DNA of 64,000 nt from Candidatus Omnitrophota bacterium (GCA_043814965.1 JBDRJN010000006.1:7838-71837); one strand, 5' to 3'. Positions 15,001 through 59,307 are shown, counted from the stretch's first letter. Numbers and translations: made by a program. The notes: generated by a model from the letters alone, not told the origin.

Positions 15001-18000
15001 ATGGCGCAGAGCTTGAGCTGTATCAAGAGAAATCTGTTATCATGAGTAACATGGTCAAAGGCCTTGGCCGTGAAAAGATAGCGGATCTTATAATAAAGAC
15101 CATAAATCCAAGTTTAAGTTATAAGCAATTAGCTGGTGACTTGACAGGAGTATATGACTCGGAATATGCGGGAGAAACCAAGCTCTCCAGGTTTGGTATA
15201 TGGGTCAGGAAACATAAGTTACTGACAGGCGCAATATTGCTATTAGGTCTAATAGCTTGCTCACCTTCTCTATATTATTTTGATACAGGAGTAAAATACA
15301 TCCATGACCGTATAGATGGAATCACAGATAAAGACATTGATACAGGAAAAGGATTTTTTGACTCATATGTAGCATGGAAAGACAGTACAGCCAGGATAGA
15401 TGATACTATGATGGAGATAGACAGCGCAATAAGGGCTTTAGGCCCATCCGCAGATAGATCAACTATAAACAACCTGAATGCCCAGAAACAAGAATTAGAA
15501 AGAATGAGAGGATTGGGGCTGAAGGATGCAAACAACAATGACATTTATTATCCTCATAATACAGGCATACCTACCAACACTACTGTAAAAAAGAATGCAA
15601 AAGGACACTGGGAATATCTGGTCAATGGAACACCAGAGCCGTTATCTAGGTATAATATGGCGATCGGTGATGCTCCTGATGATTCATATAAAGACAGATT
15701 CGACGTACTTAATGAGACTCCAAAGATCTTCTGGAGGTCCGGCAAGGGAGAACAGACACCTATAGACATGCTTGATTCAGCAAATGTCGGCACTATAAGG
15801 TTCTATAGGGCTCCTTTGGATACCATAGGTGGAACGCAGTTCTCAGACTTGCTTGAGCAAAATTACAAAGAAACAGGAATGAAGTATATTATTCCTTATG
15901 CAGCGGGTATTGATAAAAAGGGGAACACAGAAAAAGAAAGTAAAAAATTAAAAGGAGATTCATATACAAATATTCTAGAGGCAAGTAAAGCAGCTGATCA
16001 ATACAGTGATGGCGAAGCGCTCTTAAATTACCAGCTTGGCAATGAAGGCAGTTATCGCCTTGAAGGCCAGTCAAAATATGAGCCTTGGTATGATGATACC
16101 TGGGACTTATTCAAGTTTTTCACAGTGCATAATGCTATGGCGGGGGATATACTTGATCAGGAAAAAAGGATTTCAGAGGAGACTGGTAAATTCAGGCACC
16201 ATGAGATCGCAATATCACTGCCTGATATTAAAAGTCATTTTCAATGGGCAGCAGAGATCAACCAGGTCTTCCCATATCTAGTGGACAATGAAGCTGAGGG
16301 GAAGGCCCTTACTCTCAAGCATTACAAAGATAAAGTAAAAGGCCTAGGGGATAGATTTAAGGATATAAAAAATAATACAGAGCTCCCCAGGAAAGTCAAA
16401 GGTCTTGATAAGTTTATAAGTGATATGAAGGTAGCGGGATTAGTAGTAGAAGAATATAAAAATGGCAATGGAAAAGCAAAATACGCTGATTGGATAAAGA
16501 CACAGGATAAGAATGTTTTACAGAAAATATACACGTTACATAGATACCAGAGGACCCTTATAGACCCATACAATCCTTTGATAAAGAGCGCAAAGAAGGA
16601 CTTGATAGATATACAAAATGGCAAAGATAAAGATAAGGCCAGCCGCATGCAGAAAGTACTGGACGCTCTCTATGATAATTTGGAAGCAGAGCGCGCAAAA
16701 CTAGCAAATGTAAACAGCATACCTCAATTAGTAAATGGGCATTATGACGGCAGCTGGATAACAGCGATAAACAACAGCTTGATAAGGCCTCGTTATTTTA
16801 TAGATAATATGACCTATGACCAATTCAGCGATGGTATAGTCGATGAAGGCAAGAGCGTAGAAGTATTTGATTTTCGTTATAACATGAGAATACTTGGAGT
16901 CAACTCTGTACAGCGCGATAAGGCAGGTGTTGCGGCGCTATTTAACGAGACGCCTGATATGCCGGTGATATTGCTTGAAGCTGGGCAGCATAAGAATGCC
17001 ATAGATGTACTTGATCCTAATAGACAATTGGAACTAACAATACAGGTAATAGAAGCAGCAAAGAACAATATGCCTGGTAACGATAAAGGAACTGGAAAAT
17101 GTATAGGCGTATCTCCGTTCTATTTTGATGAATTGTGGAAAGCATTTTCAGAAGAAAACGAGTGGTTTTGTAAATTAGGCCTATTTAATTATGATAATCG
17201 CCGTAAGATGGTCCCAAAGACCGATAATACTATAAATAGGCTTTCCAGATTGTTCCCTGCTCCTAATGTACCTATAACTATAGGAGGGAATAAAGAGCTG
17301 AAAAGACGCGAAAATATGCTGGATCAATTGCTGTCCTCGACAAGCATCGAAGTAAAAGGCCCAGGCACATACAATATAAGCTGGATCAGCGATGGCAAGG
17401 GTGATTGGCAGAGGTTTATGGACAAAGAAGTAGATGATAATTATAAAGAATATCTATCCACTCTCCAGGTTACCCCGACACCTGAAGGAAACATACTCAA
17501 ACATGAAATACCGGATGAAAATATAGGGGCATACAAAGATAAGTATTATACATATCACAGGGATGCATTTATAGAGGGGAGAGGACATCTAAGGATATCC
17601 ACTGCTTATAAGGATAAACAAGGAAATCCAGTCGCTATGGATCAAGGTAGTGACAGGTCATATTTTGCTCCAGGGGGAGGGTATGTTCCTATATGCACCA
17701 GAGATCTGTCAGGAAGGCGCGGAAAGACCTTACTCATCGCTTTTCCAAGAATGGAAGGAAAACGCCTTGTTACGGATACAGTTATGGTACCAAACGTCAT
17801 AAAGACCTATTATGAAGCAGAGAAACCTGATTTTACGACAAATTCCAGATTTTCAGTGGTATATGTACAGAATTGGTTGAGCGAGAGTCAATCACAGCCG
17901 TTCATCTCAATAGATGTCTACAACAATAACGAAGACTTGATATTCCCGGCCTCTATCAGGACCATATATTCTGAATTTGAGGTTATGGCAGGCCAGGAAC

Positions 18001-21000
18001 TGGATAAGGCGATATATCTAAATGACAGATACGGCCGCAGGTATTGCGGAATAACATTCTATGACCGCGGACTCGTGACAGATGATTATACTACTGTTGT
18101 AGGAGAGAATGCTACTTATGAAAAGCAGGTCCATTATCAGGAGGAAGATGCAATAGCTCTCAGGGATGCCAGGCAGAAGATAGATTCTCTAACTACAGAA
18201 TACAGCAGAATAGATAGTCTTTTGAGTTCAGATAGCAATCCAAGTAATGTAGTTAGGTTAGATTTTAATAAAAATAAAGAGATCGCAGGAAAAATATCCA
18301 AAGCAGAGACATACAATAAGACTTTCAAGGATATATTGTTAAATCAGCTGTCAAATGACAATAAAGAGTTATTCAAAAATACAGAGAAAAAGATGATCGA
18401 GAATCCTGCTAAGATCAACAGCATAAATGCGCCAGAGGCCTTTAGTGATGAGGAGAAGGTATTGTTTAATGGCTATAGGTCAGGCCTAAGCAAGGTGTAT
18501 AACTATAAGAAAGGAATAGACACAAATAATAAAGAAATATCCGAATGGGCTGTAGAATATGAAGCTATGTCAAAAGATGAGTCCAGGCCGAAAAAGGTAA
18601 GAGGGCAAGCTGAATGGATCGTGTCTAAACTAAAAAGACTCGATACGCTTAAAGGAAATATCAATGACGCAAAACTGGAATTTGACAATATAAGAAAAGA
18701 AGCAGCGCGCAATGGAGATGTCTATATAACAGCTTATTCAGTCCTCGGCAAAGCAATATGGATCAGCGGTCCTGACGGCGTAGCGCATCTGGGGCTTGAC
18801 GGGGAATACAAGATACTCAAGTGGGTACCGATACTTACAGAGACTACTTTTAAGGATAATATGATACTTGATGCTACTGGTTTCTGGAACAGGAACGATA
18901 TATATGCCCCTTCCAAAGAAGAGATGATAAAGCTGTTCTATGGCGAAGACGCTGATCTTGATATGAATATTACTAAATGGATACCTACTCTTCCTGGCCT
19001 CGAGACTTTCCGGGATATAGATAACTTAGTAAATAAGCTTGAAGGCCTTGGTATGATAGACGCCTTGGATGCACAGGTTAGGATATTTAGTCCTGATTCA
19101 TTGCCAAAGGATATAGCAGATGACGAAGCCTCTTATAAAAAACTGGCTAAAAAGTATGACTCTATGAATGACCTGGTAGATAAAAAATATTTTACATGGG
19201 TCAAGAACGATGTTGAAAAAAGCGCAATCGTCAAAGTTGAAGAAAGCGCAATAGTCAGAGTAGCTTCTATAGACAAACAGACTGATATGTCTTTACGATA
19301 TGCTGCATTTGGAGATGCGTGCAAGGAAAAAGGAAACTATAAAAATGCCAACAAATATTATAATGACGCGTGGAATTTTATAAGGACAGCTAAACCAAAG
19401 ATAAAGGGATTGATCCCTTCAGAGCTTGATATAGATAAAGGTGTAGTCAGGGTAGGCGCAGAGACTTATGCTTATGATAATATTAAACTGCCCCTTACTT
19501 GCCTAGATCTCGTTGATGGGCGCCTTAAAGGCACTAATCAGAAGCATGCTTTGGGATATGCCAACGAATTGATCGGTATTATATTCTCCAGCGAAATGCA
19601 GGATCCTTTAGGAAGCGGAGGTATAAGAAAAGCTCAGAGTGTGGACATAGAGCATCTGGAAAGTTACCAGATGCTGACAGTAGATCAGGTATCCGCTTAT
19701 GCCTTGTATCGCAAGGCCTCTATTCTAAAACAGAAATTTAAGGATGACAAGGCCCTCCGTGTCGCAGTACCTGATGCATCCGGACTAGTAAAATGGCTGA
19801 AGAGAGGATATGACAAGAATAAAAATAGATTCTATCTAAGGCTTGAGTATGATCAGACTGACGAATCTTATAAGAGCTTTGATTTCCAGGACCAGAAAGA
19901 ATCTTTCGAGGCGCATCAAAAGATAGTATCGATGTTAGGCAAAGACGGCCTTATAGAGCTATTCAATGACCTGGGTCAGAATATAGATGCTGAAAAGGCA
20001 GCGGATGAGCTTATACAGACATATTTACCCAAAGATGTCATACAAGGTTCTAGTGTTATGGCGAATGTTTTAGGCAGAGAACCTTTATTCGCTTATTCTT
20101 TTGCAAAATGGAATAAGGCAGGCCAGGTCAAGATGCCGCGCATTGAACAAACCATTGCTAATAAAGTCGCAAAGTGGTTAATGGATCGATTTAACTCACC
20201 TGATACTGTAGAAAAGCGTAACATGTATAATGACGTAGTCAATAGGGGCATAAGCGGAGCTATTTGGGCCGGCCTTTTGGCTGCGTTCGCATTTGTCACT
20301 ACAGGAGGTAACAAGATAAAAGATGCTTATATCGCTAGAAGACTACTAAGGAAAAAAGCCCCATTTGAACCAGAGGTCATGGAAGTGGAAAATAGCGATA
20401 TTAAAAAAGACCTGCTGGATAATATAAATGATGCCGCGTTTACAAATGCAAGGACAGAATTTGATGATTGGGCCCAGAAGACCGATCTAAGAACCAGGCT
20501 TAAAAAAGAAATAGATAACATAGAAGATGAATATGCAAAGGGTAATGAGATAAAGGTAAACCTAAACTTTGGTATGGATGCATTCGAAAGTAAGGTAAAC
20601 CTAAGCTTTGGTATGGATGCGTTCGAAAGTAGAGATGCTCAATCCGCAAGGGCAATAGATAAAGAGATAAGAAATAAAATAGAAGAACTAAAGATAAAGC
20701 ACCACTTAAGCAGTGATCCTTATGGCATAGCAGGGCCTCAGAAGCATCCGCTCATGGAGTTCTACAGGCATTGCGCTAGCGAGTTAAATGAATACTACTC
20801 AGCATGGGACAACAAGAGAGTAAATTCTGCTTTGACCATATTATCCGGAAAACTGATGACAGAGGATTTTAAACTTACCAGGTCCGAGCTTGAAGGTATT
20901 AAAGAAGAAGTCAAAGATGAGACAGGCGAAGAATTAACGGATTATGAATATTTCCATATATTAAGGCCTTTGGCAGTAGAGGCTTTCTATACACCTTATA

Positions 21001-30000: not shown

Positions 30001-33000
30001 ATGAGGTAGGCGCAGCCTGCTGGGCAATGGCTGCTTCTTATGTACAGTTGGGCGATGAAAAGAGCGCTAAAAAATATATAAAGATACTCATAAAAGATAT
30101 TCCTTATCATCAGATATATGAAGCGAGCGGGCCAGGTTTCTGGAATGCTATCAAATCATGGCACATGATGCCTAATAGTATAGATAGAGAAATGGCCGGG
30201 ATCTATAGAGAAGCCGCAAAAGAAGAAAACATACCTATAAGTATAGTACCTGAAAAAGGCCTTTCCAGCATAAATATAGCTCCTTCAAAGGAAAAGGCTC
30301 AAGGCGCAGGCAGTATAGACAAGATAGAGTCAAAGTCCAGGATAGAAACTATTGCCAATGGTATCAGCGGTTCATGGTCGGGATACGGGTCTAACTCTTC
30401 GTGGGCGGATGGGACATTTGACCTTAAGGATGCAAGGTCCATACGCATAACATTTCCTAAAAACCAGGCAGGCATAAATATATTTGTGAGATTATTAAAA
30501 AATAGGAGCATGGCCCCGAGCGATATAGGCAGAAGTCCAAAGATATACACAATACCTGCCGATGGAGTGGTCGAGATACCTATATCAGATTTTCCTGTCT
30601 CGACAAAAGACCTTGGTAACATAGAGCAGATCTCAGTGCATTCAGGTTCTAATGCCTGGAATAATCCTTTAAAGCAGAGCGAAGGCAGGAAGGCTATGTT
30701 CCAGAAGATAGAGATCATTATAGCTTCAAAAGACAAAGGATATATGCCTATAGAGGGAAAAGATGGTTTTGGCCATGGTTTTCCGATAGAGCTCTTTGGA
30801 TTAGGCCTAAGCGCCTTAGTAGGCATGGTAATCAATAAAAAGAATGACGGAGATACGATATACGAAGATGAAGACATGAAGGTCTCCTCTGAGAGAAGAG
30901 GAAGGCTGTATATCAGCAGTAAATCCAGGAAGATAGACATGGTCTATGATCCTAAGAGGAGTAAAGATAGGCTAAAGATCAGAGGCGCTTACGATGAAAA
31001 CAGCATGGAAGAATTAAGAAAAGATATAACAACTACCATAAAGAAAAAGTCACTTAAACTGCCCTATGGTTTTATGCAGGATATCGGGATAAAGAGTATA
31101 TTGAGCCCGGAAAGAGAACGTCCGTATAAGATAAGGGATAAGTTCAAACAGCTGATAGCATTCTATATGACAGGAAAACTTACAAAGCTAAGTGATGGAT
31201 TTGAGATATATCAAGGTTATTCTATGTTTGTAAGCGGCATAGCATTGCCTCATAGGTTTTCGGACAGTGAGCTGGATTTTCTTATAAAGTCAGTAAACAG
31301 GGGATATGTCTCGGAATATGACCTAAAGAGAAGATTCGGAAATAAAGAAAATTTTAAAGCTATAAAAGAAAAGATGATCTCTTTTACGAATGCGTTATTA
31401 GCTGTAAAGGAACTCAAGAAGAGAATAAAAGGTTCTTATAGTAAAAGCTCTATAGATATGGCTTTTAATGAGCTTTATACAGAGCTTAATAGTGTAAGTG
31501 ATTATAAGATAGACGAACTAGAGAAGAGATGGAAGAGGGTGATGGAAGAGACAGGTATATATGTACCTGAAAGATATAAGGAAAAAGATGATGCCAAAGA
31601 TAAATCTTTTTCAAAGAATAAATTATACTCATCCCTTATAATTCCTTTCCTAATGGTCATCCCGGGACTATCTACAAATGCAAATACCCCTATAGATACA
31701 AAATTACAATACAATCATCATTCCAATACGCAATACGATGTCTACAGAGAATTAGAGATGTTATCTTGGAACCTTTTTGAAGATAAAAATATAGATAGAC
31801 TAATAGAAATAGGCGAACCAGCAATTCCTTATTTACTTAAGGCCTTGCAGAGCGATAAATTATATAGCTCTCAACGTGAGGAGATTATAAAACGCCTTGG
31901 AGAAATAGGCGGTATGGAGTCTATTTCACAGCTGATCAATTTATTAAAGACTAAAGAATACCTTGTGCCTGAGCTTTCCGCAAAAGCTCTTATTAAGATA
32001 GCTGAAAGAAACTCTATAGATATGGCTAATCTTTATGGAGATAAAATAACAAGTCTTATATTAGCTAATTTGGAAAAATGGGATGAGCTAGCTAGCAAGA
32101 TGGGCCCCAGAGCAGTGGCTGGTTTAATGGAATATATTGATTATTATAAGATGTCCGAAAATAGCATAGAAACCTTGTCTAAAATACAGACTCCAGAAGC
32201 GATCTCTTATCTTGTAGACAATCTTTCTAGTGCAGCTAATGACAGAAAGATCATGATAATCAAGACTTTTGATAAAACAAAGGCAAATACTCCTCAGGTA
32301 ATTGAGGCATTAACAAAAGAGTTAAAAAATATAGATCTAAAGGTACGGATAGAGTCAAGTATTGCGCTTTATAATTTAGGAAATAATAGAGGATTACTCA
32401 CTCTGATAAAAGATATAAATAGTAATTTTGAAACTATATCTAATGATACAACTTTGTTGAGAAGGATGCCTTTACCTATTAAAAAACAACTTGCTTCTAG
32501 ATTTGCAAATTCCTTAGGCAAAGGCAAGTTTGATTTTTATCATTCTGGTGCCATCTGGCAGGAGTCATCTAATATTTCAGGTTTAGTTGCGATTGGAGAT
32601 GCAGCTATACCTTATCTAGTACCATTGTTAGATAGTCCTATTGCGCAGAAGAGAAAAAATGCAGTTATGGCATTAAGCAGCATAGGGATAAAAAATAAAG
32701 ATATTGCAGATAAGATAAATTCATTATTATTAAATGACCCTGATTATGAAGTCTGGCTTCAGTCTGGAAAGGCTTTGGTTAAAACTGCACGCATATACTT
32801 ACCGAGTTGGGAAAAAGATTTTTCAATGAATAAATTAATAGGACTTTTTAGTCAAATGGACTATCCGGAGCGTAAGTATGGAAAAGAAAATATCTTACAT
32901 TCTATTATTCAATGTTCAAATTTAGAAGGTCCTATAGGGGTATACGGAGATTTTGATTATCCTGAAGAAGCATCAGCTTTATTACATAAAATCAAAGAAC

Positions 33001-36000
33001 TAGGAGAACCAGCAATAAACTTTTTAATAGACGCTTTACCTGTGTATTTTTATCAAGGTTCTTATAGTGATAATTATTATCCTGCAGAACGATTATTACG
33101 ATTTATATTGCATGGGAATTCTCTGAGATTGTACAAGGCGTTACGCGAACCGCTTTATGAGAATACCCAGAGAGCAATGTCTCTTCGCGTGAAAAGGGAT
33201 CTAATGATAATAGATATACTGAAACAATCAGGAGCTGATGGTTTTTCAGGTTTTAAACTTAATGTTGGTAATTATAATGACCTATTCGATGATAACCCAA
33301 AGATCAGAAATGAAGCATATAAAATCCTTAATAAGGAAGGGTCTGCTAGAGAGTTAGTAAGGATCAGTAGGTTATTTAATAAATTAAGAGACGAAGAGGC
33401 AGCAATAAAGGACCAGGAAATAATAAATAATACAAAGGAAGGAAAACTAAATGCCTGGCGTATACGAGAAGCTATCAATAGGATCGGTAAAAATAACGCA
33501 ATTAGTTATTTAATGACAGGATTCAGTAAAGTTAAGACTATTGAATATGCGAGATCGATCACAGAGTTGGATACTGTTAAAGGAATGAATAGTTTAAGCC
33601 AACTTTTAGACAGTGATAAGTTTAATACTGGTTTTGAAGCCTCGAAGACATTATTAGAAATATCCAAAAAAGATTCTTTAGACCTTACTTCTTTTTTAAG
33701 TAAAGACAGGATGGAGAAGTTAAATACTTATAAACTGGTAAATGGTTATGATTGGTATAAGAAATTAGATAGCCTTGGTCAACCTACGATCTCTAACCTA
33801 AAGAAGATGTTGCAGTTAGATGTAGATACAGAAAACAGAATTAAGATCCTCATTGCTTTAATAAATAGAGGGGACAAGGAATTATTGCCTGACGTATCTG
33901 ATATTATAGAGAACCATGAAAATAGTGATATAAGGTATAGAGCAGCTAATATACTTGGAGATACAAGTAGTTATTGGGCTGAAGATGTTCTTTCGAATAG
34001 TTTAAAAAAAGAGAAAGATGTTAGGGTCAGGAGATCATTAATAGAATCTCTAGGTACGCTGAAATCTAAAAAAGCGTTTAGTTACTTAATAGAGCTAGTC
34101 AAAAAAGAAAATGAAGATATAGATATAAGAAAAGCAGCTATTAAAGCTGTTTCAGATATAGGCTACAAACCCCCTGAATTAGTAGATATCTTAATAAATA
34201 AACTAAGTGATTATTCACTTAAAGAAGATATTTTTGAAGCTATTGGAGCGTTAAAGATTCAAGAGGCAGTCCCGCATTTAATAGATATGATAGAAAAAGA
34301 GATGGATAAGGACAGCCATAATTTTGAATTAATCAATAAAGCGGCAAAGCCATTAGGAGATATAGGGAATAAAGATGCCCTGCCTATATTAATTGACCTA
34401 TTGGATATAGAGAAGAACGGAGTCTTAGAGACAGCAGTTGAGGCAATAGCAAAAATTGGCCCACCGGAAGACATGATAGATGACCTTATAGATCTATTTG
34501 AATTTAGAGAAATGAACGAAGATAAAAAAAGCCCTTACGATCCTTCATCCTATTACAGTACAACATTATGGGGGAATATTAGAAACGCCTTAGTAAAGAT
34601 AGGAAAACCTGCGCTTCCTTCATTGTTAGAGGCTTTTGCAGATGAGGATATACATGAAGAGAGAGGGTATTTTAGTGGGGATAGGGTCAGTGATTATATC
34701 AAACAAGCTGTTTCCGAGATCGAGAATGTTTCTTTAGACACAGATAGGAAGCTGGTTGACTATCTAAAATCAAAATTAAGATCTACTGATTCTGATATAA
34801 GAGATTATGCCTCAGATGTCTTAGAATTGCCTTATTTAGCTAGGATAGTGAGAGAAGATGAATATAATGAGACGCTTGATTCTATGGAGTCAAAGAAGAT
34901 CAGTGATCATGATGGTGCTATTGATGACTTGATCGATATTTTAAAGTTTAAAGAAGGCAGTAATGCGCTTCATGAAAGAGCAGTAAAACTACTTGTTAAA
35001 ATAGGAAAATCCGCAATACCTGAACTATTCGAGCTTCTTACGGATGAAGACGCAGTAGATAGTAGATATGTCAAAGAAGCTTTTTCTAAGATCGAGAACA
35101 TCTCTTTAGAGACTGATGAAGAATTAACCAGCTACTTAGAATCAAAGCTTAGATCCGATAACTCTAAAATCGTAAAAAATGTCTTAAAGGTACTTGATAA
35201 GATCTCACCTGACTCAAAAGTTGCAGCTAAATTCAAAAAAGAACGCACTGATCTATTCCTGAAATGGCTTGGTATCGCAGTTATCGCAGGCGCAGTATTA
35301 ACTGTACTAACTGCTGCATGGAGGGCGTGGCGCCAGGTAATGAAGGAACGCGCTGACAATGATCCTGCAGTAGCCTCTAATACTAAAAAGTCAATATTCA
35401 GCAGGATTTATTCTAAGATCAAGGATAAATTTACATTGTTTACGCTTATAAGTACTTTTTTAGTCATACCTAATCTATCTACAGGCATTTTTGCGCAGAT
35501 GCCGCAAGGGTGGAAACCGATATCTGAATATAATTATGATGAAGAAAGGCGAGTATATAGGAATAGAGCTTACTTAAAGATGCTTAATTATATTTCAGAA
35601 AATGGGATAAAAGAAAAAACCCATGAAGAATTAAGCCGCTTGGTTTATTTAGCAGACTCTTGTGTCTTGGAAAGAGAGAATGAAGAGAATACAAGAAAAT
35701 TAACAAGACATGGAGACCTTGCAGTTGTTGCTTTAGTGGAAGCTGTCAGATATTTACCTCTTCCATGGAGTGAAGATGGAAGGGCGGTATATTGGCAGAA
35801 GCGGTATATAAAAGAGGCTATTAAAAAAATAGGTAGTCGTTCAATACCTGCATTAGTATACGAAGTGAATGATGCTGATACTGCTATATATTTATTTGCG
35901 TTGGGTGTGCTTGGTGAATTAAAAAATGCTGGATCAGCTGTCGAACTTGCAAAATTAATAAATTCAGATAAATTCGAGGATGGAACTATAAAGATGCAGG

Positions 36001-39000
36001 TATGGGACGAACGCATTGGAATGTATATGGATAAGAAAAAGACAAAATTTGAAGTTATTTTAGAAACAATAGTAAAGATAAATAACAAAAATACAGTGCC
36101 GTACTTGTCAAAATTACTTACAGAAACAGTGGAATATGATGATATCTTTGAAGAAACGTATTCTTTTTATTCTATATATTCAGAGGAAAGAGAAAAGGTT
36201 GTATGTGCTATTGGTCAAATAGGAGGGGAGAAAGCTATATCTATTTTGGATAATGTATTAAAAAAGGATAAAGACCCATTAGTACGAATAAAAGCCATAC
36301 AAATGCTGGTAGATATTGGTAAACCTGCTGCTTCAAGCGTAATCAAGGCATTAAAGCATAAAGATAACAAGGTAAAATCTATAGCTATAGAGGCGATTGC
36401 TAAGACAAAAAATATAGAAGCAGTAGATAATTTGATACATATATTAATAGCTGAAGAGGATTGGCATATTAAGGAAATCGCAGGCCAGGCGCTTATTGAT
36501 ATAAGCAAAGAACATTCTTTAGACCTTGTGGAGCATGCTAAGAAAGAAGAAAAAGAATTATTAGATTTATATTTATTTATTATTAAAGGCGAATGGGAGA
36601 ATGTTGTTAAAATTGGCAGGCCAGCAATACCAGTCTTAGCTGAGCTATTAAAGAGCAAAGATACAGGGATATATAAGTCTGATCCTATAACTGTTCTCGG
36701 AGATATAGGCGATCCAAAGGTAACGCCTATCTTGCTTGATTTTATAGGTGAAGACGTGGTAGGGCCTGCAGCTCTTGAAGCTTTTATGAAAATAGGAAAA
36801 TCAGCTATTCCATACCTCATCAATACTTTAGAGAACAGCAAAGATTATTTATTAAAAGGAAAGTCCATTTATATACTTGGGAAATTAGGACATGATAATA
36901 AAGAAGTGATGAATATTTTAATTAACAATCTTAAGGGAGAAAAATATATAAAGCAGACTATAATTGCGCTTGGAGAGGCAAGGCCGCAAGAAGCCCTTTC
37001 TTATTTGATAGATATTGCGGAAGACGAAGATGATGCAAATATTTTAACTTTAACCGCAGAAGCCTTGGGAAAAATAGGAGACAAAAAGGCATTGCCTGCT
37101 TTACTTGAGTTATTGGAAACAGATGATTATAATGTCCTCTCTTATACTATGGATGCTATTGAAAAAATAGGCGTAACTAAAGATGCGATTGATGGATTGA
37201 TAAATGTATTAAAATTTAAAGAAGGAAATTACGGGATTTTTGAACAGGCTGAAAGGCTTCTTATAAAGATAGGGAAACCAGCGCTTCCATATTTGATCCA
37301 GGCAGGAGAAGATAAGGAGATAATAGCACCTAGTTATATTGAAAGAGCTGTAACCAGCATAGAAAATAATCCAGAAGAGATAATTGGCTATCTAGAATCT
37401 CAGCTTAAATCAGATGACAATAAAATGGTAAGAAATACCTTAAAGGCGCTTAAGATAATCTCACCTGACTCTAAAGCCGCGGCTAAATTCAAAAAAGAAC
37501 GCACCAATATATTCCTAAAATGGCTGGGTATAGCAGTTATCGCAGGCGCAATACTTACTGTACTTACTGCTGCATGGAGGGCGTGGCGCCAGGTTATAAA
37601 GGAGAACAAGATCAGCGTATTTATTGGAGGAGCGCTATTAACAGTTTTTTACTATTACTTATCTAATGATATGTCATTACCCATGGTCTCCCAGGCCTTA
37701 TTCTTAGGAGGAATTGTTTTAAAGAAAGATGAGTTCAAAGAATTAGACGCCTTATTAGAGTCAAAAGTGAAAAATAGCATGGTGTCTTTACATAGGAAGA
37801 TAGTCAGTGATTCAAGGAATAAAATACTTGGAGAAGACAAGAGAGAGCTTTATGAATTCAGTCTCAGGGACATAAAGAAATGGGCAGAGTTCTTTAATAA
37901 ATATAAAAGAGACTTAGGAGAGGCGGGAGCATTTATTAAAGGAGCGTATTATATATATTATGACAGGATGGAAAATGATCTTGATAGAGGTAGAGTATCT
38001 GGCCATATAGAAGATACGATATCAGGCTTGTTCCCGGAAGAAGAACTCCAGAAAAAGAGCTTAACGGACCTAGTAGATAATATAGGAAAACAAGATAAAA
38101 ATGTCTCCCAGGTAGAAGATATAAGATTGACATATCTTGAGGAAAAAGACGATACTTACAAGATATTAGACATTGAACTCGATATAAATCATAGAGATGA
38201 AGATAAGACACATGTGCCTGATAGAAAATCTTCAGAGCTTGTGCCTATTTCCCACACCATAGAAGACCTTGAAAAGATAGCCCAGGCAACAGCTCTTAAA
38301 GAGCCGGTTCTGCTTGTAGGAGAGACTGGTGTGGGGAAGACTTCTCTAGTCAGGTATCTTGCATCAGTTACGAATAATAATTTCAGGAGGTTCAATCTCA
38401 ACGGCCAGACTGATAAGACAGAGTTTATAGGAGGTTTTAAACCAAAAAATGAAGAAGGCAATACTGGATTTAAATGGAAAGACGGCATATTGATAGAGGC
38501 GATGAAGAAAGGACATTGGCTGCTTTTGGATGAGATAAATCTTGCTGAGCCTGAGATAGTGGAGCGCATAAGATATTTACTGGATAACAATGGATATCTT
38601 GTCGTAAGCGAACACGACGGAGAAAAATATATAAGCGCGGAAGAATATGACCAAAAGGTAATGGAACTTGTAAAAGGATACGAGGCTCAAGGCATAGAAA
38701 AGGCCAGAGAAGAGTTGATAAAGGACGCTATAGGCGAACTAAAATCAGGGCCTAGTCCTATATTCAGGATCCACCCTAATTTCAGGCTTTTTGCCACAAT
38801 GAACCCTCCCGAATACGAGGGCAGGAAGGATATGTCGCCCGCGCTTATGAACAAATTCAGGGTCAAATGGATAAAAGACCTTACGGAAAACGATATAAGG
38901 ACAATAATCCAGAAAAAATACAGATTCGATAAGGTTATAACTGATTCAATAATGGAGTTCCATAAAGCGCTCAAGAAACTTAACGGAAAAGACGGCTTGC

Positions 39001-42000
39001 TTGGAAGACAAGAAGGCCATACTTACTGCTTTACTATCAGGCATCTATTAAGGCTTGCAAATAGGCTTGATGACAGAAGAGAGAAAAACCTTTTAAATTC
39101 AACAGAAGATATTATAAGGGTATTATCTATAGAAATACAGGAAGTCTATAGAGAAGAAATAAAAGGCGATAGTGATATAAGATTATTTAATAACACGCTT
39201 GGTGCTATTTTTAAGGCAGGGGACTTGGATAAGGATATAGTTGTAGAGCAGAACAAGGAAGGCGGGATATGTGTAATAGGCCAAACAAGATTTCGCATAA
39301 AGAGCGAAAGAGGAAAGCTTGTACCAGGAGATGACGCTATCCTTAAACATGTTCCTACTACTAAAAAGTATCTTTCAAGTATAGCAAGAGCTGTAGACAT
39401 GAAGGAAAAGGTGCTTCTTGTAGGGCCTACAGGTTCGTCAAAGACATCCCTTATAAAGTATCTAGCGCACCTCACAAATAATGAATTTACAAGAGTAAAT
39501 CTTGATTCCCAGACTGACACGTCAGAACTTATAGGAAAACTTGTCCCGAAGAAAGAAGGGAACGGATTTCAGTGGACTGACGGTATCCTTGTAAAGGCCA
39601 TGACAGAAGGCCAATGGATACTTTTGGATGAAATAAACCTTGCTGAGCCTGATATATTGGAAAGAGTGAATTCGCTTTTAGATGACGACGGCTATATAGT
39701 GCTTACAGAAGACAATAACAGGAAAGTAGAATGCCACCCTGATTTCAGGCTTTTTGCTGCTATGAACCCGGAAAGCTATTCGGGAAGAAATAGATTGTCC
39801 AGGGCTATGAGGAATAAATTTTCAGAAAAATGGATCTCAGGGGATATGCCGAAAGAAGAGATAGAAGAAGTAGTAAGATTTTATCTTACGGATAAAGATA
39901 TTGCAAAGACTTTACCTATTGAAGAGGGCATAGCTGTATCAATATCCAAGGAAATAAGAAAAGCATATCTAACTATAAAAGATATGATTGATTCCGGCAG
40001 ATTAGGCAAACAGAAATTAAGCGGAGGAGATATAGGTGATTATGAGTTTAGCATGAGGGACCTGAGAGATTGGGCAGAATTTGTAAGAAGGCTTTCAAGC
40101 GCATCTAACATGAGCCACACAGAAGCCATGATACAAGGCGCATTGTATATCTTTAGAGATAGGTTAGAGGGGTTTGAAGATAAAAAGATATTTGAAGAAG
40201 AAATACTTAATAAGATAGACCAGGGTTCGATCTCTGCTAAAGAAAAGATAAATATAAGTTCCTTGGATGTAACAGAAGAGGAAGGCAGGGGAGAAATAGA
40301 GATATTAAAGCAGAAAATGGAAGAGGGAAGGCTTGATGAAGGAAAAGATCCGCAGGTAGTAGTATTGAAAAAATTTAAAGACCTTACAAAAAATCTTCCG
40401 ATTGAACTTAAAGGAGACCTTTATACAATAGAGAGTAAATTATCAGGTAATGATATGGCTCAGGGTATCCATGGATTTGCGATGTTGCCAGAGGGTATAG
40501 CTAAGGAATTAGTGGAATTTATACTTAATATGCCTGAGCTAACCCGCACTGATAATAAAAATATCGTTTGGAGCATGAAAAAAGCTGCTATAGATGTAAT
40601 AAGTTATCTTGAGAATAGCGGTATAAATATAAAAGACGCAATGTTATATATTCGTTTGAAAGAGGCGCTTAATAGCCCTTCTCAGGAAGTGAGAATAGCT
40701 AGCGCCTTGGCGATAAATTTAGATAATAATAGGACAAAAAAGCTTATAAAAGACCTCAAAATAGAAAGGCCTGATAAATTACCCAAAAAGGATATAAGAG
40801 AAAAGCTAAGCAAGGATTATCTAGGTATAGATGATTTAACTAAAGATGGAAATTCTAATATCCTTCCGTCAATACTATTTGGTATTTTAGCTCAAATTGT
40901 AATAGGAACAGGTAATCTATTAGGTTTAGAAAATACTTTTCTAAAAGTCGTAGCTTTTATAGGATTCTCCCTGGTTCCTTACGGGGTTTTAGCCTTGGTA
41001 AAGCAAACTTTATCTTTTAGCTATAACCTTATTTTCTCAAGGCAATATAAGATATTAAATAATATATATAAAAAGATACCTTTAAAATTAGCCGATTTTT
41101 ATGAATTAGTAAAAGATTTCTCTAAAAAACTTTTAGACACACGAACTTCAAATCTCAAAGCCGGTAAGGATAAAGAAAAAAATAGACTAACATTTTCGTC
41201 AGTAGTGGGAGGCCTTTTGATGGGCGTGACATTTGCTTTACGAGATGACTATATATTGCCATTTATTGCTGATTTTGTAAAGGATGCTTCAGGTTTGTGG
41301 GCTTCAGGAGGTGTATGGGCCCTACTTGGTTTAATGTGGTGGTCATTTTCATGGGTATTATATGCAGTACAGGATAAAGTCTTAACAGCTTTAAGGGAGA
41401 TGATATACCAGCCTTTATCTCGTAAATACGATCCTAAGAAGAAGGCAAATGAAAATTTTGATGCTTCAAAGGATATCTTAAGAGCGTATAGCCCTGAAAC
41501 AGTACAATCCTTCTCTCATCATAAAAAGCGTGATCCAGAAGAAAAGAACAGCTATTCAGAACTCTATACAAAGAAAGATCTAAATACAGTATTGAGGGAA
41601 GACGCTATAAGGCTGTATGAAGAGAACAACACTGTCAGTATAATGGATATAGCCTTGGAGATCAACAAAGACGAAGACATGCCTAAGAACCATGTGCCTG
41701 GCAAAAAGACAGCAGGACTCGTAAAGACAGTGTCTACTGTAAAGAATCTAAAGAAGATCGCGCTATCTATTGTAATGAATGATCCAGTGCTATTAGTAGG
41801 AGAATCCGGAGTTGGTAAGACCTCGCTCGTAAGATACCTTGCGTATCTGACAAACAATAATTACAGGAGATTTAACCTAAACGGCCAGACAGATAAGACA
41901 GAGTTTATAGGAGGGTGGAAGCCCAATAAAGAAGGCGGTTTTAAATGGGTGGATGGTATTTTAGTAAATGCCTTGAGGAGCGGTGACTGGCTGGTCTTGG

Positions 42001-45000
42001 ATGAGATCAATCTTGCAGAGTCGCAGGTAATAGAGAGGATAAATTCACTACTTGATGATGACGGACAACTTAGGATCACTGAAGGTGAAAAAGAAAGAGT
42101 GTTTATTAAGTCAGCTGAATATAGAAAGAGATCGAAGGAGATAGAGAACAAGGAGAGCATTTTAGAAGAAGATGCTATGAAGAAATTGGAAGAAGAGGGG
42201 ATATTTGAGATAAATCCGAATTTCAGGCTATTTGCTACTATGAACCCAACTGAGTATGCTGGAAGAAATATGCTTTCGCCTGCTCTTATGAACAGGTTCC
42301 GCGTGAAATGGATAGATGATCTATATACTAATGAGAAACAGGCGATCTTGAACTTAACATATGGCGATAAATATAATAACCCTGGGCTTAGCCAGAGACA
42401 TATAGAATATCTCACTCTCTTACATGAGGGCTTGCAGGCGCTTAGCGCATCAAGAAAACTCGGAGAAGAAGAAAGAGACCCTTATTACTATAGCCTAAGG
42501 GACTTAAGGAAGGTCTGTGACAGGGCATTGAAGAGGATGAAAAGCGAAAGTAAACCAGGCGAAGAAGTATCCGATAAATTAATAAATAATATTTTATACC
42601 AGGAATTCTTGGAGGTTTATGGCGACAGGACAAGAGATGAGCATGACTATGAAATATTAAAGGATATTGTATTAGGTACGAGGTTTGCTGGTGCGTTAGA
42701 AGATAATAAGTTTGACATAGTAGATAATAAAAAGACAACTTCATTTGGTGGTATAGAGATTGATAGATGGGACAAAGGTGGAAAATACATTCCTAGTAAT
42801 GAGGCAAAGCTTATAGAAAGCAAAACCACCAATAGGTACCTTAAAAAACTTGCTAAGAGCGTTTATATGAATGAAAAGACGCTTTTGGTAGGCCCTACAG
42901 GAAGCGCCAAGACGTCTTTAGTGAGGGGTTTAGCGTATCTTACAGGGAATAATTTTATGAGGATGAATCTTGATGCGCAGACTGATACAGGGGAGATAAT
43001 AGGGCATTTTATCCCAGAGGAAGGTTCTAAAGATAGATTCAAGTGGGTAGACGGAGACCTTGTTACTGCAATGAAAGAAGGCTATTGGGTGCTCTTTGAT
43101 GAGTTAAATCTTGCTGAGCCTGAGATACTAGAGAGGATAAATTCACTTCTCGATGAAGATGGTTCTTTAGTTATCACTGAAAACGAAGGAGAAAAATATA
43201 TACCTAGCGAACAATTCCAAAAACTAAGAGAGGAATATATCAGTAAGGGCCTTATAGATAATAATAACGAAAAGAATGTAATAGTTGTAACTAACGATAA
43301 AGGCGAGACAATAGAGAAGATATACGAAATACACCCTAATTTCCGATTGTTCTGCGCTATGAACCCAGAAAAATATTCTGGCAGGAACAGGCTCTCTATC
43401 GCAATGCGCAATAAATTGACAGAGATATGGGTACCTGGCCTTACTGATAAGGAAGAGATAAAGCATATAGTAAAAGGCTTTTTAGGGATCCCTGAAGGTG
43501 TGTCCAAGGATGTTATCGCAAGCCAGATGGTGTTCCTAAATGGTGAATTAAATAACCTAAAAGAAGAAGATCCCGAAGGTATATTAGAGGAGTATGAATT
43601 TACTATACGCGATCTAAAGGCATGGAGTGGGTATATAAATGAGTTCCAAGGTAAATTGGGCCTGGAAAACGCTTTTATAAAAGGCGCAAGGTATATATAT
43701 TATGACAGGTTCAAAACCGACAGCGAAAGAAAAGATTTTATAGAACTTATAAGAAAAGCTGTATCTAGGGAACCTCAAGAATATATAAATGAAGTCTTTA
43801 ATGCGAAGAGTAGTGAAGACCTCAAGGAACTTACTCCTGACGAAAACAATAAACTGCATGTATTGGGCGTTACTCTTGATATCAATAGAGAAGGAGGAGA
43901 GTATGTACCTGATATAGATAGATCAAAGCTCGTAATAACAGATGAGACTCTAAAAAATCTTGAAAAAGCAGCAGAATCTGTAAAGCTAAATGATAATCTA
44001 TTATTAGAAGGAGAGACGGGCGCAGGAAAGACTTCTTTAATAAGGTATCTTGCATCTATAACTAATAATAACTTTAGCAGGTTCAATCTTAGCGGCCAGA
44101 CAGAAAAGACAGATTTTATAGGAGGTTTCAAGCCTAAGGATGGTACTTTCGAATGGCAGGATGGCATACTCATAAGGGCATTAAAAGAAGGCCATTGGCT
44201 TGTCTTGGATGAGATAAATCTTGCATCATCACAGGTAATAGAGAGGATAAATTCCCTATTAGATGATGATGGTTTTATAGTAGTTACGGAGAATAAAGGC
44301 GAGAAATATATAAAGAGTGAACAATATCAAGCACTTAAGAAGCAATATACGGATGGCGGATTAAGCGAAGGAGAGGCAAAGGAAAGGCTTAATAATGTAG
44401 ACAGGATATTCGAGATAAACCTCAATTTCAGATTATTTGCCACTATGAACCCAGTAACATATGCCGGAAGAAAGAGATTTTCAAAAGCGCTTCTAAATAG
44501 ATTTAGGGTAAAGTGGATAGATGAGCTCCCAAGAGAAGACCTTAAAGAGATATTAGTTGAAAAATATAACCATACTAATATATCCAGTAAGCCTATAGAT
44601 AAGGCGCTGGATTTTTATTACAGCGCCAAGACCGCGGCAGATAAATACCCTCAGCTAAAATTGTGTTTTACAATAAGACATGTCTTAAGATGGTTCGATA
44701 GGATTAACTCTTATACCGGAAAAGATGTCGATAGTATGTTTGCTCTAGAGGCAGGGGAAGTATTTCTGGATGGTTTAGGAGAAGAGATTTCGGAACAAGA
44801 GATAAAAAGAGAGCTTGTAGAAAATATAAGAAATATCTTTGGCAGTCTGTACGAAGACAATGATATAGATATAGACAAACAAAAAGATACTATTAGCTTT
44901 GGAGAGATAAAGATAGCTGAGAAAAAAGGTAAGAGAGAACAATATATAGATAGAGAGCCTTTGTATGAGACAGATTCTACAAAAACGCTTTTAAAAAAGC

Positions 45001-48000
45001 TAGCAAAATGTGTAAATCAGAAAGAGCCGGTTCTTATGAAAGGCCTTACCGGAGGAGGAAAGACCTCTTTACCGAAATATTTATCTGATCTCACAAATAA
45101 TGATTTTGTTACACTGGACTTGGATGGCCAGACTGATACTGCGCAACTTATAGGGCAATATATCCCTGATGAAAATACAAAAACTGGTTACAGGTGGCAG
45201 GATGGGCTTCTTATAAGGGCAATGGAAAATGGCTGGTGGATACTCTTGGATGAGATAAACCTTGCTGAGGCGGATATATTGGAGAGGATAAACTCGCTCT
45301 TAGACGATGATGGGTATATAGTCCTGACTGAAGACAACAATAGGAAGGTAAAATGTCATCCTGATTTCAGGCTTTTTGCTGCCATGAACCCAGAGACCTA
45401 CGCAGGAAGGGCGAATCTTTCAATAGCGATGCTCAATAAATTTCACCAGATATGGGTTCCAAGGGATTTTACAGAAAAAGAAGATATAGAATTAGTCGGT
45501 CATTACTTAGAGACATATACAGCAATAGATAAGATGTCTTCCAGCGTACAGCATATAGAGTATAGAACTATGATAGAGAAAATGCCTTTTGATGTTATGT
45601 ATAGCGTGGCTGATCCATTAGGATTGATATATATAGGTATTAAATCGTTAAAGTCACTGATATCAAGTAAAAGGCATGGGCTTGATCTAAGTGTAAAATA
45701 TTATAATGAAAAAGGAGAAGAGATCACCGAGGACCTAAATAGAAAAGAAAAAAGAAACCTTAAAAAATTCAATCGCAGGCTTAAAGATATAGGTGTAGTA
45801 GCAAGTTATTTTGGAGGGGATTTTGAGGTAGATATACGCCCAGGGAAAAGATGGGCTATAGGATATCCTAAGGATCCGAATGAAAAACCAGTAATAACAT
45901 TCCCTAAGAATGAGCTTCTGGAAAAAGATAAGGATGTTGTGATAGGCAGTGCTTTACATGAAGCAGGACACAGAGACATATCGTGGATGGATAGTTTCTT
46001 TACCGAAAAAGAATCAAGAAGGTTTTTACTTAATGCAGTCGAGGACCCTCGCGTAAATGAATGGACTACTCTAAAGACAGAAGGGACAAGGAAATTTACA
46101 GAAGCTACATACATAGACGCATACCCAAAAGAGGCTAAGAAGAGTTTTGATGAACGAGGTATTATGCCTCACATACAGTTTGGCCTTGGGCTTATACATT
46201 ATTGGTATTATGGCGAAGAACACCCTGCGATAAAAAATACTAAAGTGTTAAAAGCTCTCCAGGATACAAGAGTGGATGCTGTAAAGGCATATAATATACA
46301 CGCAGGCACTATTACTATAACAAGGGATAAAGATATAAAGGATGGATTTATATTATATTCGCCTACATATGGTGAGCAGAAAATAGACTTGAAACTTGGT
46401 GATAGGCGCGCCTTGAGGATGAAAGACGCAGGGATGGTAGAGAGAACAGGCAAAGAAGAAATAACGTTTTATACAGGAGACGGAGAGATCCCAGTCATTT
46501 TTAAAGAAGAAGATTTCAGCAAGAAGAGCCTTTTAAATATGCGCCCGAGCGCAAAGGATAAGGAAATAGCAGCGATTGAATCAGCAAGGATCATAAAAGA
46601 AAAGATATTGCCTGTATATGAGACACTTGTAAAAGAGTCTGTAGATAATAAAAAAGAGGAGTTGAAAAAAGATAGCCTTAGCGAAGATATACAAAGCCAG
46701 GCCGAAAAGGAAGTAGAAGAAGAATCAAAGAAAGCAGCTGATGCATTAGGCCCAAAGATCTCAGAAGATGATCTAGAGGCCTCGGAGGATAAAAAGACAA
46801 AAGCTAAAGAAGACAGACAGCCAACGCCTGAAGCTAAAGAAAAATCACAGCCAATGTCAGTTGACAGCAAGAATGCGGAAGATGAAGACAAGAGAGATGG
46901 CAGTGATATAAAGGAAAGCGCTGAAGACGTAAAAGATGAACCAGGCGAACGTGAAGAATCCGACAGTGATAAGGAAAATAGGGGAGGCCAGGTTGATGCA
47001 GAGAGCTTCTTTAAAGATATGGTAAGAAAGTTTGAAACAGAAGTACCACAAACTACATATGACAATTACTATAGAGGCATAAGCAGGATCATAGAAAAGC
47101 TCTTTGGTATCCTAGATAATGAGCTCCATAAAGATACAAAATTTAGATATAAAGGCTATTTTGCAACAGGACCTAAGCCTGATATGAGAAAAGCAATGAC
47201 AATGAAAGAGACGGGAGATATGGATATATGGCTTAAACGTGTCAAGGCTATACAAAGAAGTTTTAAATTTAGCTTGGTTCTAGATGAAAGCGGATCTATG
47301 GGGCGCGGAGACAAGACAAACCCTGCTGTACAGGCCATGATAATATTTATGGAGGTTCTCTCCAGGTTGAACATAGATTTTTCTATAATAGGCTTTAGCG
47401 ACTCGCCTTCTATTCACATGAACTTTGGTGAAAGCTTCAAGCATAGTAAGAATAAAGTAGTAAAAGAAGTTATCAGATACATGGGTAAAGGCGGGACGAA
47501 TGACGCAAAGGCAGTAGAAAAGGCAACTGCCTTATTAGATAGGGAGATAAGTGATACAAAGATCATGATAGTGGTCAGTGACGGCTATGGAAATAGGGAG
47601 CTATTACGCAAGAATTTATTAAAGGCATATAAAAAAGGCATAGATGTAATAGGTCTAGGCATAGGATCTGGCATGGATTATGTTAAGGAGGTCTATGACT
47701 GCGCAAAGGTCATAGGGGACTTGAATGATCTGCCCAGGATAGTAGCCCAGGTGCTTATAGACATAATCGTAAAAGGAAAACACGTAAGGCGCAGTAATAG
47801 AGACAACGAGGTAGACATCTCTGGGGAAGTAACTAAGATAAATAAAACACAATCTGACGTCCCGGATAGCTTGACGCAATTAAACTCCATACCTATATAT
47901 CAATATATCGGTGCAGGCATAAAAGCGCTGAAGGCAGGCAGGAAACATCTAAAAGATATTAAGAAAGAGAGAGAACTCAAGAAAAAAGAGGAAGAAGAGA

Positions 48001-55631: not shown

Positions 55632-55666
55632 TACAATAATTACATTAAGTTAAGGAGGTGAATAAG

Positions 55667-56002
55667 ATGAAGTCAGGAGATTTTAAGGAAAGACGGAAAT
55701 TCAAAAGACTACAGATATCTGTTCCTGCGAAGATAAGGTATGGATCAGCAAGTGGAAAGGAAAAGGTATTGGAGGGTGTCACTCTTGACGTTAGTTTCAA
55801 CGGGGCATATTTGGTAAATATCAATATTGACAAGATCAATCCGGAAGACAACGTAAATATGTCCCTTTCAGTGCCTCGCGACAATTCCAGGGATTTTCCT
55901 TTTTCTCGGATCGTAGGTAAAGCAAGGGTAGTAAGAGTCGAGAAAAATGCCTTGGCGCTTGAATTTAATAAGGATGTTTCTAGGTTTTTTATTGCAAATT
56001 AA
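55667..56002 (+). CDS. PilZ-domain protein (c-di-GMP receptor)
   Basis: 'RRKFKR' (RxxxR) and 'DVSFNGA' (D-x-S-x-x-G) c-di-GMP-binding motifs at correct spacing. AAGGAGG at 55652-55658 lies 8 nt before ATG 55667. The ORF track begins at an in-frame GTG at 55658 inside the RBS, so the ATG is the likelier start. Confidence 0.7.
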   Translation: MKSGDFKERRKFKRLQISVPAKIRYGSASGKEKVLEGVTLDVSFNGAYLVNINIDKINPEDNVNMSLSVPRDNSRDFPFSRIVGKARVVRVEKNALALEFNKDVSRFFIAN

Positions 56003-59235: not shown

Positions 59236-59307
59236 GGGTACAGGGTACGGGAAATGGAGTAGAGATGGCTGATTACGGGTTACGGGTTACGGGGTACGGG
59301 GTACGGG
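59234..59307 (+). repeat. Second cluster of GGGTTAC/GGGGTAC G-tract repeats (G-quadruplex-type), flanking and overlapping the start of the glycoside hydrolase gene
   Basis: 'GGGGGTACAGGGTACGGG' 59234-59251 and 'CGGGTTACGGGTTACGGGGTACGGGGTACGGG' 59276-59307. Same unit as 57371-57396. Confidence 0.8.

Follow-up and report, generated by a model that had tools for sequence, protein, structure and literature searches.

Two HEAT-repeat cassettes with homogenised junctions precede a midasin-like ring in an Omnitrophota giant protein

Results

HEAT-repeat cassettes bracketed by hydrophobic segments

Two HEAT-repeat cassettes, each running from a signal-peptide-like segment to a stop-transfer-type helix, lie directly ahead of a midasin-like ring of six AAA_5 modules in a giant protein of a Candidatus Omnitrophota bacterium. 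The gene was analysed in a 64,000-nucleotide (nt) stretch of DNA (GCA_043814965.1, JBDRJN010000006.1:7838-71837; the window), in which a first-pass annotation made from the sequence alone had singled out the region 31740-37606. This region is part of a frame-3 open reading frame (ORF) that is free of stops from the window start to 55586 and encodes at least 18,526 amino acids (aa); residues are numbered along this ORF, and the coordinates of its features refer to the + strand. The cassettes descend from an old duplication, and sequence comparison indicates that the helix closing them was homogenised afterwards by gene conversion. The same cassette is found in a second genus.

Profile searches bore out the description of the repeats as HEAT/PBS-lyase-like. 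The Pfam families HEAT_2 (PF13646; E 6e-74, 244.9 bits, cut-off 27.7) and HEAT_PBS (PF03130; E 8e-25, 84.9 bits, cut-off 20.9) both matched above their curated thresholds. When 200-aa tiles were compared with the Pfam threshold, five of ten passed, three fell slightly under it and two, aa 10961-11160 and aa 11761-11960, had no match. The second and third copies of a module described below scored 22.6 and 25.1 bits, just under the cut-off. A purpose-built hidden Markov model recognised 16 canonical 'IGxPA(I/L)PxL' units; all of them fall in aa 10592-12438, and the rest of the protein has none. The 'GxPAIPxL' units had been estimated at dozens; their HEAT type holds, and the number of recognisable canonical units comes down to about 16 in a patchy array.

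Structure prediction showed these repeats to be an alpha-solenoid. AlphaFold modelled aa 12059-12600, including the third module copy, as continuous helical hairpins (predicted local distance difference test score, pLDDT, 86; predicted template modelling score 0.72), with about 27 helices in aa 12059-12485 (pLDDT 78-98). Residues 11905-12040 were modelled as helical with a beta-hairpin insert at aa 11994-12013. The best PDB folds found by Foldseek for the model of aa 12059-12600 were alphaRep, CAND1, AP2, SF3B1 and importins, and a database search with the same stretch returned 318 homologues, all of them generic bacterial HEAT-repeat proteins. The solenoid of cassette A extends over 31695-35264 (aa 10564-11753), with canonical HEAT_2 in patches; that of cassette B extends over 35514-37520 (aa 11837-12505) as judged from tiles, AlphaFold and Foldseek.

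Each solenoid lies between two hydrophobic segments, which we call TM-a and TM-b (TM, transmembrane). Cassette A is opened by TM-a1 (31623-31694; aa 10540-10563; 'KDKSFSKNK|LYSSLIIPFLMVIPGLSTNA|NTP'), which is signal-peptide-like and weakly similar to TM-a2, and is followed by the stop-transfer-type helix TM-b1 (35265-35321; aa 11754-11772; 'WLGIAVIAGAVLTVLTAAW'). A basic loop of 36 residues with 10 Lys/Arg (K/R) versus 4 Asp/Glu (35322-35429; aa 11773-11808), cytoplasmic by inference, leads to TM-a2 (35430-35513; aa 11809-11836; 'KKSIFSRIYSKIKDK|FTLFTLISTFLVIPNLSTGIFA|QMP'), again signal-peptide-like and homologous to the segment 'KSIFSNIRRRFTLFTMIILFTLIPILPAKA|N' of Ca. Gorgyraea atricola. 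Cassette B is followed by TM-b2 (37521-37577; aa 12506-12524; 'WLGIAVIAGAILTVLTAAW') and by two short hydrophobic helices (37611-37721; aa 12536-12554 and 12556-12572), which we read as a degenerate TM-a and a return helix. By eye, the TM-a segments have a basic n-region, an h-region of 13-16 residues closed by proline and then a small-x-Ala sequence ('TNA|N', 'IFA|Q'). This signal-peptide n/h/c pattern was seen by eye in nine segments from four genomes, the window, Gorgyraea and the relatives L001 and L004 (introduced below) included.

The region thus holds six hydrophobic segments, not the two single membrane passes first described. The topology, which had looked odd, is regular on this count: parity is preserved because each TM-b helix pairs with a TM-a segment and two further segments follow TM-b2. 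Over the whole protein, hydropathy alone identifies 28 uncharged hydrophobic runs, each 15 residues or longer.

An old duplication and a homogenised helix

A module of about 150 aa had been reported to occur three times in the array, and the three copies were recovered: copy 1 at 34452-34799 (aa 11483-11598), without the helix; copy 2 at 34872-35348 (aa 11623-11781), ending in TM-b1; and copy 3 at 37146-37604 (aa 12381-12533), ending in TM-b2. Identity is 58% between copies 2 and 3 (E 3e-55) and 40% between copies 1 and 2 (E 2e-17). The duplicated unit is larger than was thought. Residues 11307-11781 are colinear with aa 12059-12533, with 34% identity over 513 columns (E 8e-56), and this colinearity reveals a fourth, degenerate copy at 36690-37055 (about aa 12229-12350) as the positional homologue of copy 1. 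On these alignments, the ancestral unit of about 475 aa already contained two sub-modules.

Copies 2 and 3 do end in a nearly identical helix, 'FLKWLGIAVIAGA(V/I)LTVLTAAWRAWRQV', at aa 11751-11778 and 12503-12530. With Kyte-Doolittle hydropathy values of 2.2-2.3 it is among the most hydrophobic segments of the protein. At the DNA level, 35205-35349 and 37461-37606 agree at 128 of 146 positions (87.7%), in line with the figure of about 88% given earlier. The self-comparison of the gene that the first-pass annotation had proposed was run, and nowhere in the 64 kb was there a stronger self-match than that between the two TM-b tracts (blastn, 207 bits, E 1e-53); a self-repeat search extended the match to 35118-35347 versus 37374-37603 (83% over 230 nt, spacing 2256). 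We delimit the putative conversion tract as 35202-35350 (copy A) and its partner 37458-37606 (copy B). Its 3' boundary is abrupt and coincides with the end of homology, and the 5' side fades gradually.

Synonymous sites were compared to separate the age of the helix tract from that of the duplication. Nei-Gojobori estimates of synonymous divergence (dS) between the two paralogous stretches were 2.1 for aa 11307-11617 and 1.6 for aa 11618-11732, whereas the TM tract (aa 11733-11784) gave a dS of 0.39 and a nonsynonymous divergence (dN) of 0.06 (dN/dS about 0.15). Identical residues of the tract share the same codon in 31 of 41 cases, where 15.2 are expected from the codon usage of the gene (p 6e-7). 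A Walker-B repeat of the AAA modules served as control: at 94% aa identity it shares codons at 27 of 47 residues versus 20.4 expected (p 0.04). This control corresponds to the second-strongest DNA self-repeat (39615-39769 versus 45237-45391; 84.5% over 155 nt), which joins the Walker-B motifs of AAA2 and AAA6 and is explained by protein conservation alone, its synonymous sites being near saturation. A Fisher test of the tract against the rest of the module was marginal (p 0.05) and is superseded by the codon-usage expectation and dS. RNA structure does not account for the conserved nucleotides: neither copy folds better than shuffled sequences do (z = +0.8 and -0.2).

Since dS is 0.39 in the helix tract and saturated at 1.6-2.1 across the old duplication, these data indicate that the duplication is old and that the helix tract of about 150 nt was homogenised later by gene conversion. 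The first-pass annotation had left the choice between recent internal duplication and gene conversion; dS, codon identity and the AAA control favour conversion acting on an old duplication.

The second copy could in principle be a mis-join or a repeat expansion in metagenome assembly, since the window derives from a contig of a metagenome-assembled genome (MAG). We consider this extremely improbable. The copies differ at 18 of 146 positions and their flanks differ as well, a divergence at which an assembler would not mistake one for the other; no stop interrupts the frame over 55 kb; and an independent genome contains at least six such junctions.

The cassette in Ca. Gorgyraea atricola

That genome emerged from an exhaustive phmmer search with the junction (aa 11700-11855) against 1.84 billion representative proteins. 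The sole match was MDP8230456.1 of Ca. Gorgyraea atricola (E 3e-44, seven matched stretches), annotated as 'HEAT repeat domain-containing protein, partial', 3,534 aa long and cut by the contig end. Its gene lies on JAVCCW010000025.1 (L085, 10001-20602) and encodes at least six cassettes; it starts right after a housekeeping cluster of rpsB, tsf, pyrH, frr, rtcB and serS. Each Gorgyraea cassette is made of a 'KSIFSNIRRRFTLFTMIILFTLIPILPAKA|N' segment, 430-960 residues of HEAT repeats, the sequence '...LKVLEQISPEDA..KK', a TM helix and a Pro-rich basic loop. The junctions are homologous to TM-b1, loop and TM-a2 of the window, at about 35% identity. The cassette is a trait conserved in a second genus. 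Two other searches gave nothing: a word-indexed homologue search with module 2, TM and loop (aa 11601-11855) had no match, and module 3 with its TM retrieved no relative in a metagenome scan.

The Gorgyraea junctions carry the same mark of homogenisation. Junction copies are 50-86% identical among themselves, with an excess of identical codons at p 1e-6 to 1e-18, whereas the adjacent 300 HEAT residues are 27-46% identical, most pairs being near synonymous saturation and some showing a smaller excess. Within the window the junction copies are 88-93% identical, and between the window and Gorgyraea about 35%, a comparison of two genomes only. Homogenised junctions in both the window and Gorgyraea thus constitute a signature of concerted evolution. 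They are probably, as far as these alignments allow one to tell, the recombination substrate by which cassette number changes.

Strong purifying selection on the helix, for instance for a specific helix-helix contact, might produce similar copies without any gene conversion. The low dN/dS of the tract fits such selection, as do the recurrence of a KW-(I/L)-G helix start in relatives and the marginal Fisher test. Against it, the synonymous sites of the tract are conserved too, by dS as well as by shared codons; the AAA repeat, with its 94% aa identity, has near-saturated synonymous sites. The pattern also recurs among at least five Gorgyraea junction copies, while junctions of the window and of Gorgyraea share only about 35% identity. 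Selection as the only cause is very unlikely.

The ring and its relatives

The ring occupies 37752-45515 (aa 12583-15170) and was identified by Pfam and by its PDB match. AAA_5 was found with E 7e-136, in five matched stretches in aa 10001-15000 and one in aa 15008-15144. The best PDB match of the ring is eukaryotic Midasin (E 6e-138), with CbbQ/NorQ at 1e-13. Pfam further matched AAA_lid_7, MDN1_4th and VWA, and an acidic stretch precedes the VWA; the whole unit spans 37752-47672. The VWA/MIDAS domain itself (47274-47672; aa 15757-15889) carries the DxSxS motif as 'DESGS'. Four hydrophobic segments lie in an insert between AAA2 and AAA3 (40848-41372; aa 13615-13789), and the ring itself therefore appears to be membrane-tethered. 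Hydrophobic segments at the matching place are also present in the relatives L001-L004.

These relatives come from four genomes and are about 40% identical to, and colinear with, the ring and VWA region. Three are labelled as MAGs of Planctomycetia/Planctomycetales and one as Ca. Omnitrophota, and all lie in ORFs of more than 5,000 aa. In all four a HEAT_2 block stands just upstream of the ring (E 1e-83 to 1e-101), and exactly one TM helix, with 5-6 K/R in its C-terminal flank, separates the two. Where the sequence reaches far enough (L001, L003 and L004), a TM with a basic N-terminal flank such as 'RYIIKQKK' precedes the HEAT block. L004 satisfies the positive-inside rule at seven of seven membrane segments if HEAT is outside and the ring inside. 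Between the stop-transfer helix and the AAA ring, L001-L004 share a conserved stretch of some 240 residues with HExxH ('LLLMETEHELQHI'; about 4430-4600 in L004), which is missing from the window. Three further Omnitrophota HEAT proteins (P0002, P0003 and P0034) have an N-terminal signal peptide or a single internal TM between HEAT arrays. An alignment-based scan with AAA1 yielded 80 loci, which were set aside as distant AAA_5 proteins, none with the HEAT turn motif.

Placement of the cassettes relative to the membrane

We propose, with moderate confidence, that TM-a and TM-b bracket HEAT blocks that lie outside, with the ring in the cytoplasm; both orientation and function are inferred. TM-a would start export of the chain from the cytoplasm, and the HEAT solenoid (670-1,190 residues) would sit on the extracytoplasmic face as a large loop between membrane segments. 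TM-b, conserved and 19-23 residues long, would stop transfer and return the chain, and the short, strongly basic loop would follow. After TM-b2 a return helix would be needed to bring the chain back to the side of the ring. The midasin-like AAA+ ring and the VWA would work in the cytoplasm, with a single helix as their only covalent link across the membrane. Such cassettes would descend from the old duplication of at least 475 residues, with the TM-b tract of about 150 nt homogenised afterwards. The HEAT blocks are placed outside because the ATPase ring must be cytoplasmic and one TM lies between the two in the relatives. Given the general role of HEAT solenoids, they are likely to form an extracytoplasmic protein-binding surface.

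The array had been seen as a scaffold for the AAA ring. It does stand directly N-terminal to it, and contact between the two is doubtful in view of the one TM between them and the charge bias. In the four relatives this bias holds at every loop and sets HEAT block and ring on opposite sides of the membrane. Direct contact between the two is probably impossible.

Several observations weigh against this placement. The orientation is derived from hydropathy, from the positive-inside rule and from parity with an ATPase whose place must be the cytoplasm. Basic residues (5 K/R) also flank TM-b1 and TM-b2 on the N-terminal side, which makes the charge bias at these two helices alone ambiguous. The segments after TM-b2 are short (19 and 17 residues), and AlphaFold gives them helices of 15 and 10 residues at pLDDT of about 60; parity in the window depends on both of them spanning the membrane. 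AlphaFold confidence is low for the loop and TM-a2, too low to show whether TM-b1 and TM-a2 pack as a hairpin. In Gorgyraea an extra N-terminal hydrophobic segment precedes the first TM-a and, if a true TM, would invert the parity there. Finally, passages of West-Roberts et al. (10.1101/2023.11.21.568195) caution that TM segments are no reliable guide to the localisation of giants.

A HEAT scaffold on the cytoplasmic side is the first alternative to be considered. TM-b and TM-a would then form hairpins that hold the solenoid at the cytoplasmic surface of the membrane, where it would present partners to the ring. A cytoplasmic location is typical of HEAT proteins, the ring has the HEAT block as its immediate neighbour in the window as in the four relatives, and passages of a preprint (10.64898/2026.06.07.730766) read 46% of Omnitrophota giants as TM-anchored cytoplasmic proteins. 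Parity would allow this arrangement in the window if aa 12536-12572 formed a single span. It would, however, place loops of net charge of about +6 outside, contrary to the positive-inside rule, and with the single TM between HEAT and ring in four of four relatives it would put the ATPase ring outside the cell. The TM-a h-regions, 13-16 residues long and closed by Pro and small-x-Ala, also have the anatomy of signal peptides rather than of anchors. We regard a cytoplasmic scaffold as unlikely.

The same anatomy raises the question of whether the chain stays in one piece. Signal peptidase I might cut co-translationally after the small-x-Ala of TM-a, releasing separate HEAT ectodomains that are each anchored by TM-b. 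The c-region is conserved at every TM-a ('PAKA|N', 'PIKA|N', 'TNA|N', 'IFA|Q' and 'THA|Q'), and further internal export signals are suggested by a lipoprotein-type signal at 15219-15263 (aa 5072-5086). This signal, 'RKHKLLTGAILLLGLIAC|SPS' with the lipobox 'LLLGLIAC|S', has a basic n-region, a hydrophobic core and the lipobox L-I-A-C, and is the sole such match in the 18,526 residues. West-Roberts et al. (10.1101/2023.11.21.568195) pose the cleavage of giants as a question in the passages concerned. The motifs were, however, judged by eye, and uncleaved signal-anchor segments can look alike; the relevant passages of 10.64898/2026.06.07.730766 treat internal signal-peptide calls as artefacts. 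Cleavage of this kind is, in our estimate, quite unlikely. An equally unlikely extension would make the giants polyproteins that pass through the membrane one cassette at a time and are cut by signal peptidases I and II into distinct surface proteins, each with its own anchor, with the homogenised junctions as recombination hot spots of cassette gain and loss.

The giant gene and its neighbours

The giant ORF (1-55586, + strand, frame 3) is open at the window start and ends in a stop at 55584-55586; the other two forward frames contain about 2,000 stops each. Pfam found no match at E <= 0.01 in aa 1-10000 (window 6-30005). Past aa 10,000 the order of domains is HEAT_2/HEAT_PBS (aa ~10,580-12,500), six AAA_5 with midasin lids (aa ~12,583-15,170), and then VWA, HD_4, proline dehydrogenase and GNAT. 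Two motifs in the N-terminal part were followed up and dropped: 'AGGGKT' at aa 2618, read as SecA-like, and 'HNHW...S..D' at aa 9255, which resembles a JAMM motif, had no support from Pfam or from PDB sequence searches. For a SecA DEAD domain, Pfam gave no match in aa 1-10000 and a phmmer search with aa 2538-3437 against PDB returned no SecA, the N-terminus of the protein lying outside the window. A short tandem repeat at 20553-20631 (40 nt, 95%) in this unannotated part encodes 'VNLNFGMDAFES' twice.

Immediately 3' of the giant gene is a PilZ-domain gene (55658-56002, + strand; PF07238, E 5e-9, 55658-55999 scanned). It is followed by a sugar ABC transporter (substrate-binding protein and two permeases) and by GH2-like and GH72-like genes. 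With 100% identity, the GH2 gene (59265-61613), downstream of the giant gene, matches MFH1478645.1 of a Candidatus Omnitrophota MAG.

Discussion

The locus belongs to the published class of Omnitrophota giant membrane proteins and is not a new class, as follows from its Omnitrophota origin and the PilZ gene directly downstream. Passages of West-Roberts et al. (10.1101/2023.11.21.568195) state that the majority of Omnitrophota giant genes have a PilZ gene immediately downstream and list HEAT_2 and AAA_5 among the twenty most frequent domains of the class. According to passages of 10.64898/2026.06.07.730766, about 94% of these giants have TM helices or a signal peptide, and in 65% a Pfam domain occurs more than once. 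The protein in the window shares with them an ORF of more than 10,000 aa, many TM segments, the common domains HEAT_2 and AAA_5, long Pfam-free stretches and the downstream PilZ gene. A divergent SecA DEAD-like domain is reported for most Omnitrophota giant membrane proteins; in the part of the protein within the window no SecA-DEAD or C39 domain was detectable. The keyword-searched passages of the two studies (10.1101/2023.11.21.568195 and 10.64898/2026.06.07.730766) contain no mention of the TM-a/HEAT/TM-b cassette, the homogenised junctions or a midasin-type ring, and a literature search for 'midasin' together with 'Omnitrophota' found no work connecting the two. We regard these three features as refinements within the described giant class. 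The classification is unchanged: within a gene class that is exotic yet known, the locus is nothing out of the ordinary.

How the giants are placed in the membrane and whether they stay in one piece are described as open questions in passages of West-Roberts et al. (10.1101/2023.11.21.568195). The HEAT cassette is a compact, repeatable unit that bears on both. It is small enough for topology mapping with reporter fusions, and exact candidate sites of cleavage (A|Q and A|N) follow from it. Recombination at the homogenised junctions suggests, in addition, a mechanism by which giant genes could lengthen.

A close counterpart is MDP8230456.1, which shares the junction ('...LKVL..ISP..', TM-b, basic loop and the TM-a sequence 'KSIFS.I...FTLFT..LIP'), the HEAT repeats between junctions and the homogenisation of the copies. 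It differs in having at least six cassettes where the window has two, in including the true N-terminus and in ending at the contig end. The repeats themselves resemble PBS-lyase HEAT proteins (PF03130/PF13646) and alphaRep, the best structural matches, in their 31-residue helix-turn-helix unit and 'IG.PA(I/V)P.L' turn; unlike in those proteins, the units of the window alternate with a beta-hairpin and helices of non-canonical type, have membrane segments on either side and are built into a giant polypeptide. In flavivirus-type polyproteins, alternating internal signal and stop-transfer sequences thread successive domains across the membrane. The resemblance of the cassettes to that arrangement is one of analogy only, with no homology, and cleavage in the window is hypothetical.

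With Midasin/Rea1 the ring has in common a single chain of six AAA_5 modules, the lids AAA_lid_7 and MDN1_4th and, after an acidic stretch, a VWA/MIDAS domain that carries DxSxS. The ring of the window differs in its bacterial origin and in its apparent embedding in the membrane, four hydrophobic segments lying between AAA2 and AAA3. A long helical linker was not identified, and the ring is fused to HD, proline dehydrogenase and GNAT domains. If the HEAT blocks do lie outside, one helix would connect a midasin-type motor with a binding surface on the extracytoplasmic side, an arrangement that would be unusual for ATPases of the MoxR/midasin class.

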